A DNA stretch of 41,895 bases from an uncultured Candidatus Peribacteria bacterium (GTDB lineage Bacteria > Patescibacteriota > Gracilibacteria > Peribacterales > Peribacteraceae), in assembly GCA_964434585.1 (NCBI GenBank), contig CAYSVN010000002.1:1-41895 (forward strand), read 5' to 3'. Shown one piece after another: positions 29,365 to 34,895 of the stretch (position 1 is its first letter; every line of letters begins with the position of its first letter). The notes beneath the pieces were generated by a model that made no database searches, was not told where the DNA came from, and saw only the letters and a program-made list of their open reading frames with translations. Both the position numbers and the translations under genes were made by a program.

Positions 29365-30345
29365 ATGCATATAAACACACATCAAATTGTACGTTTTGCC
29401 GTACTGACATGGCTACTAATACCCGCGCTTGTTATGGCTGCGGGCCAAAGTGCTAACTTTAGCCTTAATGGCCAGTTAGAAAACAGTAAAAATGGTGTAT
29501 CACCAAGCTTTGATATGGAGATTCAAAATGAACCATGGAAAGTTGGTGGTGAAAGTCCTAGCTTCCAAATTATTAATAATAGCCACTTTGTGGCTAGTTC
29601 TTCATCAAGCTCTTCGAGCAGCTCTTCTGCTCCTGGTGTTATTCTAGGAACAGGCGGTGGCGATGGTGGCTCTGGCGGCTGTCGTACTAACGACACTTGT
29701 CCAGATGATGGCGGTACCGATGGTGATACTGCTGTTATTGGTGATAGTAGTGGGGTCGATGCTGGTGGCATTGGTGGTGATGACAGTGGAAACACCGGAG
29801 GAACTATTGGTGACACTGGTGGTGATGATAATGGTGATATTGGAGGTGTTGATGGGGCAATTGAAAATGCTGGTGATGATGGAAGCTTTTTCCCTGCTCC
29901 TACTGTTGAGCCATTTGTGCCTGTTATTATTATTGATAATGCTTCAGAAATTTCTAATCAATTTAATTATTTTGGCTATGGGTCTGAAGCAGAACTACGC
30001 AACGCTTATGTGTTAGCAGCTAGTGCTATGAATTGTGGCCCTGCTCCTGAACATCGTCAATGTACTCATCAAAATGTTTGTAAAGAACTCCTAGATGAAT
30101 ACGCTCCGGCTTGCAGCGATGTGGCCATTTGTGTCCTTGACCATGATTGTACTGCTTCTTTACAGGCTAATGATGAAGCTTTTAACAGATGGCTTGCTCA
30201 TCAGCGTACAACATTCCATGCTAGCGCTTCACAAGAATTTGTTCGTTACTATATTGGTACAGCTTTCTCATTACTTGTGTTTATGCTTGCGCTTTATGCT
30301 TTATTTTTTACTCACCGTAAATTAACTCAGTCCTCTTTACTATAA
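29365..30345 (+). CDS. Secreted Ser-run / Gly-Asp-rich protein with Cys-containing domain and C-terminal TM anchor
   Basis: Signal peptide, an S10-like run, a GGDGGSGG...GDDNGDIGG acidic Gly-rich region, and a C-terminal hydrophobic helix followed by HRK. A TGcTATAAT box lies at 29345-29353 upstream. Confidence 0.6.
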   Translation: MHINTHQIVRFAVLTWLLIPALVMAAGQSANFSLNGQLENSKNGVSPSFDMEIQNEPWKVGGESPSFQIINNSHFVASSSSSSSSSSSAPGVILGTGGGDGGSGGCRTNDTCPDDGGTDGDTAVIGDSSGVDAGGIGGDDSGNTGGTIGDTGGDDNGDIGGVDGAIENAGDDGSFFPAPTVEPFVPVIIIDNASEISNQFNYFGYGSEAELRNAYVLAASAMNCGPAPEHRQCTHQNVCKELLDEYAPACSDVAICVLDHDCTASLQANDEAFNRWLAHQRTTFHASASQEFVRYYIGTAFSLLVFMLALYALFFTHRKLTQSSLL

Positions 30346-31634
30346 TGTTCTATCTTCAAACCTTATCGCGATTTTTATTTCTAATGGTGTTACTGCTTAT
30401 TCCGGTACTTTCTGTTCAGGCACAAAATGATGTCCCTAATACCTATATGTATAATGGACACTTGCTAGACCCTGCTGGAAATCCTATTACAGCACCCATT
30501 GATTTACGGTTCAGCTTTTGGACTAACACCGATTACGTTCCTACTGATACATTGCCAAGTGGCGGTGTTAATACTGGTGCTCTCGATTATGCAGGCTGGA
30601 TAGAAGTTCATACCATTACGACAAATGCTGATGGGTACTTTTCTGTCATTCTTGGCGAAACTGTGCCGTTGCCATCATTTGCCTTTACTTCTGTTGGAAC
30701 AAGTACATTGCAAAGCCTATACCTACAGGTTGATGCTAAAATGAATGGTGATCCATTAACGAGCTATGAATTATTAGATTGTGATATTACCGTTCCTACA
30801 CGTGACCGTTCTCCAATTTTATCCGTACCGTTTGCACATAATGCTAGTTTTCTTAACGGTGCTAGTGTTGGCGTAACAGAAGGTGATATTGCCTTACTTG
30901 GTACGGATGGTGTCTTTAATATTGTTCATGTGCCATGGGGTACAAACTACGATAGTTTTACATTAGATGCTGATGGTACTGCTGGAACAGGGGATAGTAT
31001 TGAGTTAGTATTTGGCTCTATTGCTAATATTTTAAGTTTTGATATTGATAACGATTGGTTTAATTTTAATAATGATGTAAATATTGATGGTGATTTAACT
31101 GTAACCGGTTTAATTAATGGTGTTGATGTTACAACACTCTTTACAGCTAATGCTTTAACGGGTTCTCATTTAGAAGTTTACACTCCGCATTATAGTGATG
31201 TTTCTTATACCGATGATGGTACCAACAATGTTGGCCAATTGCTTTTGGAACATGATATTGCTGAAGGAAATTTTTACCGCTGGCGCAGCACGCGGACTAC
31301 GTTGCAAGATTACACTATTACAATGGAGCATACTCTGCCGCTTAATTTTCTAGGCTGGGACGATAGTAGTCCATTTGAGGTTCGCTACCGTACCAGTGAT
31401 ACTGCCGTTAATTCTGCCTTAGATATTGAGCTTTATGATACCTCTGGAACACTTGTTGGTTCAGCGCTTGGACTTAGTAGCTCAGGAACTTGGGACACTG
31501 CTACATTTATACCAGTTGGCACTTGGAATCCAGGCGAAAAATTAAAAGTAGTATATACCCCGTATGCACTTACGGGTCATAATGTTGATGTTGGCGATAC
31601 TCGTTTAATGTATACCGTTATTAATAGTACGTAA
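30345..31634 (+). CDS. Secreted hypothetical protein
   Basis: 429 aa with a signal peptide ending VQAQ. TAATG overlap with the upstream gene. Confidence 0.6.
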   Translation: MFYLQTLSRFLFLMVLLLIPVLSVQAQNDVPNTYMYNGHLLDPAGNPITAPIDLRFSFWTNTDYVPTDTLPSGGVNTGALDYAGWIEVHTITTNADGYFSVILGETVPLPSFAFTSVGTSTLQSLYLQVDAKMNGDPLTSYELLDCDITVPTRDRSPILSVPFAHNASFLNGASVGVTEGDIALLGTDGVFNIVHVPWGTNYDSFTLDADGTAGTGDSIELVFGSIANILSFDIDNDWFNFNNDVNIDGDLTVTGLINGVDVTTLFTANALTGSHLEVYTPHYSDVSYTDDGTNNVGQLLLEHDIAEGNFYRWRSTRTTLQDYTITMEHTLPLNFLGWDDSSPFEVRYRTSDTAVNSALDIELYDTSGTLVGSALGLSSSGTWDTATFIPVGTWNPGEKLKVVYTPYALTGHNVDVGDTRLMYTVINST

Positions 31635-31635
31635 C

Positions 31636-32754
31636 ATGCATTCACGCTATCAAAAAGTAATGGCTTTAATTGTTACAGCTATTTTGCTGGTATTTTCTGG
31701 CATTATTGTTAAGCAAGAATTAGCCGCATCGTTACTCGATATTAAAGGAACCCCTTACCATACTTCGTTTTCTTACCTTTTAAGTCGTGGTATTATTGAT
31801 GGTTATCCTGATAAAACAGGACGACCTTATGGATATATTAATAGAGCAGAAGTGGTAAAAGTATTGGTAAATGCTCGTGAAGACTTACGCTTAAAGTTGC
31901 CAGAAATTGAAGCTGGATTACCACAGTTTCCGTTGTTTGTGGATACCCAACAAGACCAATGGTATGCTCCACATTTAGAGCTTGGTTTTAAAGAACAGCT
32001 TGTTACTGGTTACCCAGATGGTAGTTTTAGACCAGGCCAACTCGTGCGTGTAGAAGAGGCGGTCGCACTATTAACAAGAGCATTTAAACTACATGAAACA
32101 CGTAACGATGTTGTAGATTCTGCTTATATAGAAAACCAACCTAACCAATGGTTTACATTACCAATTAATGCGGCGGTGGCTCGTAATCTTATTCAACATA
32201 AGTCTAACCTACGTTTAGGTACGGCTATGACACGTGGCCAATTTTTCGATATGTTATACCGTTTACATCTTATCCAAAATACAGACCAAGCTATGTACCA
32301 GGGCCCAGAACCATTTGAGGAACTACCAGATTTACCAGATGCTCCAGCAGTTGAAAATATTGCTATTAGTATAGAGCAGCCTAATACCTCTAGCCCGATT
32401 GCAGTTGAATATGGTGGTGACACTGAAGTTGCGACTGAAATTGCTGCTCCACCTCCACCTCCACCTCCACCGCCTGCGCCTCCAGTTAATACTACTATTA
32501 ATACTGGTCAAAACACTGGTGGTAGCACAGTATCTGCCAATAATAATGGTGGCGGCACTACGACCACAGTTAACAATAATGGCGGTAGCACTATTAACTC
32601 TAACAATAATGGTGGTGGCACTACTGTTAATGCTGGTTCTTCTAACAATGGTGGTACTATTAATGCTGGCTCTAATCCATTATTTTTGATCCAAATTTAC
32701 CGATTGAATATGTCGATAGTCATCCAGAAAAATCGTTTTTACCTTATGCTATGA
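31636..32754 (+). CDS. Membrane-anchored SLH-domain protein with poly-Pro and Asn/Gly-rich linker; the 3' end looks frameshifted
   Basis: N-terminal TM helix. Three SLH repeats (e.g. FVDTQQDQWYAPHLELGFKEQLVTGYPDGSFRPGQLVRVEEAVALLTRAF), then P9APP and NNNGG(G/S)T repeats. The last ~24 aa after the T5 run at 32683-32687 look non-native. Confidence 0.7.
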   Translation: MHSRYQKVMALIVTAILLVFSGIIVKQELAASLLDIKGTPYHTSFSYLLSRGIIDGYPDKTGRPYGYINRAEVVKVLVNAREDLRLKLPEIEAGLPQFPLFVDTQQDQWYAPHLELGFKEQLVTGYPDGSFRPGQLVRVEEAVALLTRAFKLHETRNDVVDSAYIENQPNQWFTLPINAAVARNLIQHKSNLRLGTAMTRGQFFDMLYRLHLIQNTDQAMYQGPEPFEELPDLPDAPAVENIAISIEQPNTSSPIAVEYGGDTEVATEIAAPPPPPPPPPAPPVNTTINTGQNTGGSTVSANNNGGGTTTTVNNNGGSTINSNNNGGGTTVNAGSSNNGGTINAGSNPLFLIQIYRLNMSIVIQKNRFYLML

Positions 32755-33170
32755 ACTTACCTACCATCGGTATTCGTAATGTTCCTATTTTAAAACCGAG
32801 CAATGTTACGAGTCGTGCAGGGTTAGAGGCTGTGCTAGATAAGGGTATTGGAAATATTATGAACCAGCCCGGTGGTGGTGGTAATGAGTTTTACTACGGC
32901 CATAGTAGTAGCTATGTCGATACATTGTATTCCCGTATTTTCCGGGCAATTTCTGGCATGAACCCAGGTGATAAATTCTACATTACATATAAAGGTATTG
33001 TGTTTGAGTACCAAGTTGATCGCCATGAAATTATTGCAGCAGCAGATACAAGTGTTTACCGTGATTCTGGTATTGCTAGAGCAGTGCTTTACACCTGCCA
33101 CCCACCTGGAGGATTTTCGCACCGGTATGTTATTTTTGGCACACCGGTTAAAGCGTACGTTATTAAGTAA
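32751..33170 (+). CDS. Sortase-family transpeptidase catalytic domain (no own membrane anchor; probably the 3' part of the preceding gene)
   Basis: Starts at LPTIGIRNVPI. His is in YYGHSS, the catalytic Cys in VLYTCHP, and Arg in SHRYVIFG, with sortase-like spacing. The frame is open upstream to 32676. Confidence 0.65.
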   Translation: MNLPTIGIRNVPILKPSNVTSRAGLEAVLDKGIGNIMNQPGGGGNEFYYGHSSSYVDTLYSRIFRAISGMNPGDKFYITYKGIVFEYQVDRHEIIAAADTSVYRDSGIARAVLYTCHPPGGFSHRYVIFGTPVKAYVIK

Positions 33171-33209: not shown

Positions 33210-34895
33210 ATGGAAAAAGTATGTGTACATTGTCAGGCTCAGTTTAATTTTACAGCTGAAGATGATGCACTACTGCAAAAATTATTACCAACTATTAACG
33301 GACAAGTTTATACACTGCCTAAGCCAACGCGTTGCCCCGACTGCCGAAGCCAACAGCGGCTTGCAACCGGCAATCAGTTATTTTTAAGCATGCGCACCTG
33401 TGACTACACTGGTGAGAGTATTATGTCGCATTATCCTAAAGATTCTAAATACACGGTGTACTCACAAGATAAATGGCACTTAGAGCCATGGGAAGCTAGA
33501 GACTATGGCCGAGACTACGATTTTAATCGACCGTTTTTTGAACAATTTAAAGATTTAATGTTGGCGGTACCACATCCAGCTTTGTTGACTGATTTTTTAT
33601 TTGATCAAAATTGCTCATACACTAATCATGCTGGCCATAATAAAGACTGTTACCTAATTTTTGACTCTGATGACTGTGAAGATTGTTACCTTAGTTATAG
33701 CGTGCATAAATGCAAAGATTGCTTAGATTGTTTTAGGCTTCGTGAGTGTGAACTTTGTACAGAGTGCGTGGATTGTTACGATTGTTATGGCTGTAAATAT
33801 TGCCAAGACAGCTCGAATTGTAGCGATAGTGCGTTTTTAAAAGACTGCGTTGGCTGTCGTCATTGTTTATTTTGCAGTAACCTTCAAAGTAAAGAATATT
33901 GTATTTTTAACAAGCAGGTTTCTAAAGAAGAATTTGAGGCTGCTTGGAGTAAATTATCATCACGGCAGTATTGTTTAGAGCAGCAAAAAATATTTAAAGA
34001 TTGGCATATGCAGTTTCCTAAACGAGCGTTCCATGGTGTTAATAATGAAGATGTTTCTGGAGATTACATTGATAGTAGTAAAAATTCACATGGTTGTTTT
34101 GATAGTTCTAAACAGTGGGATTGCCGACACTGCTGCCAGGCTTGGGACGGGTTAAAAGACAGTATGGATACACAAGAATGTGGACTTTCGGAATTCCTGT
34201 ATGAAACAGCCTATATGGGCGAGAATTGTCAAAATACCTACTTTACCTGCTTAAGCCCAGGTGGATGTTTGTATAATGTTTTTTATAGTATGTACTGTAT
34301 TCATGGTAAAAATTTATTTGGTTGCTTTGGTATGCGTAAATCTGAGTACTGTATTTTAAATAAGCAGTATACCGAGGCAGAATATAACGAATTGGTACCA
34401 CGTATTATTCAACATATGATGCAGACAGGGGAGTGGGGAGAGTTTTTCCCAATTGATACTTCGCCATTTTTCTATAACGAAACATTAGCCCAGGACCATT
34501 ACCCATTAACAAAATCTGAAACATTAAGCCGTGGTTGGCCTTGGCAAGACCCAGTTGAAGAGCAGCTTGAGTTTACAAAATCTATTAATGCTCAGCAGTT
34601 ACCAGACACCATTGCCGATATCCCCGACGATGTTCTTAATTGGGTGATTGTTCCTCGTGACGGTAAACCGTTTAAAATTGTGTCTCAAGAGCTTGCATTG
34701 CGTAGAACCATGAATGCTGCATTGCCGCTAGAACCTTTTTTAAGTCGTTATCATCGTTGGCGTGCTATGCGGAATGAGCGTGTTCTGTATCATCGCCAGT
34801 GCCAACATTGTTCTAAAGACATTCAAACAACGTATGCCCCTAATAGGCCAGAGATTGTGTATTGTGAAGAATGCTATCTTAAAGAGGTTTATTAG
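33210..34895 (+). CDS. Cys-rich zinc-ribbon repeat protein, paralog 5 (distal copy)
   Basis: 561 aa with the same architecture as 1-6665, and about 41 Cys by hand count. The C-terminal module has lost some Cys. Confidence 0.92.
   Translation: MEKVCVHCQAQFNFTAEDDALLQKLLPTINGQVYTLPKPTRCPDCRSQQRLATGNQLFLSMRTCDYTGESIMSHYPKDSKYTVYSQDKWHLEPWEARDYGRDYDFNRPFFEQFKDLMLAVPHPALLTDFLFDQNCSYTNHAGHNKDCYLIFDSDDCEDCYLSYSVHKCKDCLDCFRLRECELCTECVDCYDCYGCKYCQDSSNCSDSAFLKDCVGCRHCLFCSNLQSKEYCIFNKQVSKEEFEAAWSKLSSRQYCLEQQKIFKDWHMQFPKRAFHGVNNEDVSGDYIDSSKNSHGCFDSSKQWDCRHCCQAWDGLKDSMDTQECGLSEFLYETAYMGENCQNTYFTCLSPGGCLYNVFYSMYCIHGKNLFGCFGMRKSEYCILNKQYTEAEYNELVPRIIQHMMQTGEWGEFFPIDTSPFFYNETLAQDHYPLTKSETLSRGWPWQDPVEEQLEFTKSINAQQLPDTIADIPDDVLNWVIVPRDGKPFKIVSQELALRRTMNAALPLEPFLSRYHRWRAMRNERVLYHRQCQHCSKDIQTTYAPNRPEIVYCEECYLKEVY

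Follow-up and report, generated by a model that had tools for sequence, protein, structure and literature searches.

Classical Gram-positive sortases (sortases A-F; for example, Listeria SrtA, PDB 5hu4, and Actinomyces SrtC-1, PDB 2xwg) share a fold, the Pfam domain PF04203 and a His-Cys-Arg triad. SLH surface proteins carry tandem SLH repeats after an export signal and are bound to the pyruvylated secondary cell-wall polymer. The SLH ligand itself is made by a CsaB-type pyruvyl transferase. Sortases are common in CPR bacteria, as described in a study of CPR protein families (PMC6744442). The paper on the Peribacteria genomes (PMC4736985) goes no further than 'a sortase A' and S-layer genes, and our literature search found no paper describing a fusion of SLH repeats with a sortase.

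The closest relatives of the locus described here are SLH-sortases from Peregrinibacteria/Peribacteraceae, which are present in the databases as 'sortase' or 'LPXTG-site transpeptidase family protein' (for example, P0013 and P0002). The locus has the same order of parts and the same His, Cys and Arg residues as these proteins but, instead of being one uninterrupted frame, it is broken at about position 32674-32680. With the classical sortases it shares the fold, the Pfam domain and the triad. It differs in that its sortase part falls below the cut-off of every NCBIfam class and in that, if the apparent signal peptide of the canonical family members is cleaved, retention of the enzyme would depend on the SLH repeats and not on a membrane helix. 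Like the SLH surface proteins, it has tandem SLH repeats following an export signal; here, however, the cargo is a transpeptidase and not an S-layer lattice domain or a hydrolase. The locus also resembles the split genes found in MAGs, with two abutting collinear ORFs, a downstream part free of decay and further essential genes that are broken in the same assembly. In contrast to typical cases of this type, the break is not located at a homopolymer or a repeat.

The window analysed is a stretch of 41,895 nucleotides (contig CAYSVN010000002.1 of assembly GCA_964434585.1, positions 1 to 41,895 of the forward strand). Coordinates given without a contig name refer to it. The host genome (G000) is a draft of 1.19 Mb in 92 contigs with 38.5% G+C, whose relatives carry the source names Candidatus Peregrinibacteria or Peribacteraceae. 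Two ORFs, both on the forward strand, are concerned. ORF A (372 aa; 31636-32754, frame A) includes the signal or anchor, three SLH repeats, a poly-Pro segment and an Asn/Gly stalk, and ORF B (139 aa; 32751-33170, frame B) includes the sortase catalytic domain. ORF B is in the -1 frame relative to ORF A and the two overlap by the four bases ATGA. Frame B is open upstream to 32676 and is preceded by a TAA in the sortase frame at 32673-32675. If one T is added to the T5 run at 32683-32687, the two are joined in a product of 511 aa. An initial annotation of the window, made from the sequence alone, had given these coordinates and this fusion and had proposed a single gene split at the T5 run. The coordinates, the open frame and the length of the fusion were all reproduced here.

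The N-terminal part of the gene (31636-32675, frame A) includes a hydrophobic signal or anchor segment (31657-31710), three SLH repeats (about 31738-32265), poly-Pro (32446-32484) and a stalk rich in Asn, Gly, Thr and Ser, which ends at 32675. The Pfam SLH model scores 45.9 bits on ORF A (cut-off 20.8) and matches two stretches (31738-31854 and 31936-32046). The third repeat (aa 170-210) emerges from the alignment and from the structural model of the orthologue P0025, in which it forms the third helix pair. On ORF B, the Pfam Sortase model (PF04203) scores 57.5 bits (cut-off 26.6) over model positions 2-125 of 125, beginning at residue 2 of the ORF. The catalytic His in GHSS (32898-32909), Cys in TCHPP (33093-33107; in full, LYTCHPPG) and Arg in HRY (33120-33131) are all retained and are invariant in an alignment of 19 sequences. 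None of the NCBIfam sortase classes reaches its cut-off (class C, 41.7 of 160 bits; SrtD, 40.8 of 140; class D, 40.0 of 165), and the nearest solved proteins by sequence are class C sortases (E = 5e-07). The N-terminus of ORF B (MNLPTIGIRN) contains no hydrophobic segment and, as encoded, no export signal, in agreement with the initial description of this ORF as lacking both signal peptide and membrane anchor. An export signal or anchor is available to the sortase only when both frames are joined.

A structure was predicted with AF2 for the intact orthologue P0025 using 19 aligned homologues (mean pLDDT 68.6). The model contains three SLH helix pairs (pLDDT 80-95) and a disordered stalk at residues 239-359 (pLDDT < 50). 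It becomes ordered again from about residue 360, which is where the sortase frame opens in the window. The segment preceding the sortase is ordered (pLDDT 79-87) and includes a beta-strand, IEYV (366-369), located ahead of the Met (residue 382 of P0025) that begins the short ORF in the window. The catalytic part of the model matches Listeria SrtA (5hu4) with a TM of 0.75, an rmsd of 2.6 A and a probability of 1.0, and also resembles sortase C and D structures. Through this orthologue, 91% identical in that part, the catalytic part of the window gene is predicted to have the sortase fold, an eight-stranded beta-barrel.

Both window ORFs are collinear with each of three intact orthologues that consist of a single ORF, P0025 (520 aa), P0002 (513 aa) and P0026 (521 aa); all three of these read straight through the position of the interruption. 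The joined frames can be aligned end to end with P0002 (66% identity, 98% coverage), and P0026 is likewise 66% identical over 98% of its length. The SLH part (residues 1-232) is 82% identical to P0025 and 75% to P0002, while the pre-sortase segment and sortase together (32679-33167) show 91% protein identity to P0025. This last orthologue was reached by way of the cluster at 90% to which the 139-aa ORF belongs. Synteny with the window extends along its contig (L020), where a 430-aa gene lies upstream and three genes follow downstream (the Cys-rich gene, a Bax1-I gene and one of 647 aa). DNA was compared for two of the three intact orthologues (contigs L020 and L013). From these comparisons, both window ORFs are collinear pieces of one conserved gene. 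This upholds the proposal of a split gene, together with the composition that had been suggested for its product (signal or anchor, then three SLH repeats and poly-Pro, then the Asn/Gly stalk and the sortase).

The distribution of this architecture was obtained by searching the sortase segment first in 40 related genomes and afterwards in 200 from the same family (threshold E <= 1e-20). Of the 200, 185 (79 of 84 genera) have a match, which almost always lies inside one open frame, mostly of 380-480 aa, and nearly always in one copy per genome. Four loci were read fully: each consists of one ORF that includes a signal peptide, SLH repeats, a short linker, the sequence PYASEKYF(A/S)I(S/A)(M/I)P and the sortase. 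A protein search with the joined frames identified 18 database proteins with both SLH and Sortase Pfam domains, some of which are already called 'sortase' by NCBI and JGI. The split two-ORF arrangement was found neither among the matches of the protein search nor in the 200 family genomes. Clearly, as judged from these sequences, SLH repeats and sortase in one ORF constitute the normal, usually single-copy, architecture of this Peregrinibacteria/Peribacteraceae-like family, and not the unusual one that had been supposed initially.

Among the 200 genomes, only the host genome has two strong matches. Its canonical copy (contig C57, 462 aa) is intact and is 40% identical to P0013. The copy in the window represents a divergent subtype, shared only with P0002, P0026 and P0025, all from unbinned contigs. 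The sortase part of this subtype is only 34-43% identical to the canonical family copy. It also carries a stalk of ~120 residues (poly-Pro and Asn/Gly) and has TCHPPGG where the canonical copy has TCWPPDS. The length of the stalk is different in each of the three orthologues, and the stalk is therefore indel-prone.

Comparison of the DNA sequences does not support the T5 run as the point at which the frame is lost, nor a homopolymer error or slippage there. The region reads GAA TCT ATT ATT TTT GAT CCT in L013, GCT GCT CTT ATT TTT AAC CCA in L020 and, in the sortase frame, (T)AA TCC ATT ATT TTT GAT CCA in the window. The sequence TTATTTTT is invariant in all three and is read by the intact genes as (A/C)TT ATT TTT (that is, in the sortase frame). 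On this alignment, therefore, T5 is the ancestral, in-frame state and not the lesion. For the window to descend from a T6 ancestor, two events compensating each other would be required. When the three DNAs are aligned, the gap in the window is one column longer than that in L020 in the block before the TTATTTTT motif. Compared with L013, 22 or 16 bases are missing, depending on the alignment; both numbers are 3n+1. We infer a net deficit of one base (mod 3) in a zone at about 32674-32680, 3-9 nt upstream of T5. These bounds assume a single event, with the frame-B TAA as the left limit and the conserved ATT ATT TTT as the right limit; the exact base cannot be fixed from the alignment. The zone corresponds to the junction between the disordered Asn/Gly stalk and the folded catalytic module. 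Around it, the joined protein would read ...INAGSN-(x)-IIFDPNLPIEYVDSHPEK, and the truncated product ends with ...NRFYLML.

The segment between this zone and the annotated sortase start (32676-32750, frame B; SIIFDPNLPIEYVDSHPEKSFLPYA) belongs to the coding sequence of the ancestral gene, and its 25 codons are not open merely by chance. In the codons at 32679-32750, 21 of the 24 residues are identical to P0025. Nine codons differ and, when inspected by eye, six of the differences are synonymous in frame B and seven are non-synonymous in frame A. The 24 codons before the annotated ATG thus show the pattern of a sequence evolving as coding in the sortase frame. The alternative reading, the out-of-frame tail of the 372-aa ORF (LFLIQIYRLNMSIVIQKNRFYLML followed by TGA; 32680-32754, frame A), shows no homology to the orthologues; it matches nothing, and had initially been described as an implausible tail. 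The TGA that ends it arises merely because the conserved Met-Asn codons, ATG AAY, are read in +1, and the same TGA occurs in L013 and L020. Similarly, the Met with which the 139-aa ORF starts corresponds to a position inside the proteins of the family that is conserved as M or I (...(A/S)(M/I)P...). The TGA had also attracted attention as a rare stop codon in the window. We have rejected this clue: of 30 long open frames in the window, 3 end in TGA, as do 98 (about 10%) of the 932 counted genome-wide.

The age of the break can be judged by comparison with L020 (dS about 1.2-1.5). The dN/dS ratio is lowest for the pre-sortase segment and sortase (0.047), followed by the SLH part (0.084) and the upstream 429-aa gene (0.149); the part downstream of the break is therefore the most constrained of the three. 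There are no signs of decay downstream of the break: no second lesion was found and the His, Cys and Arg are intact. Since this part is constrained, has kept its catalytic residues and carries no second lesion, the break must, from the sequences compared, be either very young or not real.

The interruption is most likely a lesion of a non-programmed kind that leaves the second SLH-sortase copy of this genome one base short (net, mod 3). We slightly favour its being an artefact of consensus or assembly in a MAG that bears other errors, and give this about an even chance. Two single-copy genes illustrate such errors. In ligA, a TAG (C1:17351-17353, ...APRW*RAYKFP...) interrupts a 735-codon open frame, and in topA a TAA (C70:4785-4787, ...AAAKL*RVGADI...), revealed by a scan for in-frame stops between long open stretches, lies within a continuous Topoisom_bac match. 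A cell would hardly be viable with both genes broken, and the assembly consensus must therefore include errors or non-viable variants. Reassignment of TAG, or of any stop codon, was rejected: the in-frame stops recovered by that scan (52 TAA, 17 TAG and 7 TGA) follow the overall usage (609, 225 and 98, respectively) and the tRNA set of G000 includes no suppressor tRNA. The analogy with ligA and topA is weakened, however, by the nature of their lesions, which are substitutions and not indels. In addition, a short-read assembler has no obvious reason for an error at the break. No homopolymer longer than 2 nt is present there, and no exact repeat of at least 21 nt from 32400-32760 recurs in the linker itself or elsewhere in the genome; collapse of the assembly at repeats is consequently unsupported. 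Exact and degenerate junction patterns, used in searching for an independent assembly of the same strain, were unmatched in metagenome contigs (a collection evidently without the record for L013). The 139-aa product is recorded nowhere else, and a protein search across the junction retrieved only the window's own ORF. The other form of a non-programmed lesion is a genuine and very recent frameshift, a one-base-class deletion at the border of stalk and catalytic module in a redundant, lineage-specific second copy, which we consider to have a little less than an even chance. The cell would then make a 372-aa SLH-stalk protein with a nonsense tail and, at most, also an anchor-less cytoplasmic sortase, clipped at its N-terminus and out of reach of its substrates. 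Such an event fits the location of the break in ordinary sequence, where the lack of repeats gives no mechanistic reason to expect an assembly error. It would be affordable given the intact C57 copy, would have occurred in an indel-prone stalk, and has a parallel in the neighbouring Cys-rich gene, which appears broken in the related contig L020. It is less easily reconciled with the strong purifying selection acting on this copy over a dS of about 1.2 (at the dN/dS of 0.047 given above) or with the single lesion, which would require the event to be extremely fresh, and it must be set against the implausible ligA and topA stops in the same assembly.

Readings in which the broken locus functions as it stands are far less probable. 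A programmed -1 ribosomal frameshift, transcriptional slippage or phase variation at T5 would provide the full-length enzyme, and a -1 shift anywhere in 32676-32751, an interval that includes T5, does restore the frame. This is nevertheless extremely unlikely: the three intact orthologues need no shift, and in L020 and L013 an identical T5 is read in frame. A slippery heptamer of the type X XXY YYZ is not present at the T-run, which reads A TTT TTG, and the 103 nt following it (32688-32790) have an MFE of -12.4 kcal/mol compared with a shuffle mean of -11.7 (z -0.30), which gives no indication of a stimulatory structure. A shift at T5 would, moreover, turn the conserved (S/A)(I/L)IF into PLFF. 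Phase variation would be expected to involve differences in length, whereas the run is T5 in the window, L020 and L013 alike; T5 is also too short compared with known slippage tracts, which counts against slippage. A pair of genuine genes, one for an SLH-stalk surface protein and one for a free-standing 139-aa sortase with translation coupled at the ATGA, is just as improbable. The ATGA overlap is a common coupling arrangement and the Pfam Sortase model begins at residue 2 of the short ORF. However, this ORF has no export signal, its Met is the internal family residue described above and the TGA, as a +1 reading of ATG AAY, is present in intact genes too. The 24 upstream codons are coding in the sortase frame and correspond to an ordered strand in the P0025 model, and the split arrangement is absent from the relatives searched. 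Initiation signals do not help to distinguish these cases. A Shine-Dalgarno core precedes the start of 4.8% of 642 long ORFs in G000 compared with 6.9% at random positions; in a genome that does not use this signal, its absence before the sortase ATG is uninformative either way. Regions upstream of starts in G000 are A/T-rich with very little G. This AT-rich, Shine-Dalgarno-free style of initiation, together with the ATGA overlap, would permit some reinitiation. A real break with an active enzyme maintained by low-level -1 slippage or reinitiation, giving a wall-bound SLH-stalk 'decoy' and a little full-length stalked sortase in a family that would use wall-held secreted sortases, is conceivable, although we regard it as very unlikely. 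The break in the window is not to be taken for recoding or phase variation.

Whether it is a correctable error of the draft or a fresh pseudogene of a redundant paralogue, the frameshift itself matters little. The ligA and topA stops imply that other odd gene structures in this assembly need checking at the level of the reads before they are interpreted. The architecture is of wider concern. The SLH-sortase is near-universal in this candidate-phylum family. With canonical members that appear to carry a cleavable signal peptide and to depend on SLH repeats for their retention, it would represent a testable variant of Gram-positive-style surface display in ultra-small bacteria. If correct, the use of SLH repeats in place of a membrane helix to keep the enzyme at the wall would be a mode of localisation undescribed for sortases in the literature that we searched.

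If the break is an artefact, the organism would make a protein of ~511 aa that could operate as follows. The N-terminal signal or anchor would lead to its export and the three SLH repeats would presumably hold it on pyruvylated cell-wall polymer. The flexible stalk of about 120 residues would allow the catalytic domain to range over the envelope, where this Cys-transpeptidase (sortase) domain would be expected to act on surface proteins with C-terminal sorting signals. In canonical members, the hydrophobic segment ends, by eye, in AxA-like sites (..VFA/AS.., ..AHA/AP..). This suggests that their N-terminus is a cleavable signal peptide; in the subtype of the window, such a site is harder to recognise. 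Encoded in the host genome are about 20 SLH proteins, together with one pyruvyl transferase resembling CsaB (PF04230, 74.8 bits; C12:14867-15655), the function of the latter being a prediction from the presence of the gene.

Potential substrates are also encoded in the genome. A protein that ends with LPKTG, a membrane helix and a basic tail (C19:3-1493) is located directly upstream of an SLH-sortase (C19:1534-2610, 359 aa), and this pair is likely to represent a candidate enzyme and its substrate. Four further proteins (on C10, C25, C32 and C51) end with xSGPG, a membrane helix and an Arg/Lys tail; xSGPG is possibly a second sorting motif.

The gene immediately upstream of the SLH-sortase (30345-31634, forward strand) encodes a secreted protein of 429 aa and is a conserved neighbour. 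It precedes the SLH-sortase in L020 (430 aa, 75% identity) and also in L013 (56% identity over the 143 aa compared). The protein has no Pfam or NCBIfam match. We considered it as a sortase substrate and have rejected it for the present as it carries no C-terminal sorting signal. A paralogue of its C-terminal 150 residues is found in G000 at C13:4514-5941. This is the only paralogue of the 429-aa protein and lies 3.4 kb from another sortase, with housekeeping genes between the two.

Two further observations concern neighbouring and related loci. The Cys-rich 561-aa gene located downstream in the window (33210-34895) has an orthologue in the JGI contig L020 (L020:3723-5261) that appears to be broken or to carry an internal deletion: residues 1-391 are matched by a piece of 393 aa and the C-terminus (...YCEECYLAEVY) by a separate 87-aa ORF. 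In the host genome, a 1577-codon open frame on contig C12, with SLH and sortase-like matches and one in-frame TAG, is directly followed by a 218-aa ORF (C12:25668-26324) that ends with ...VPEPSSAGILLLLGAGVGMHRRRRA, a PEP-CTERM-like tail.
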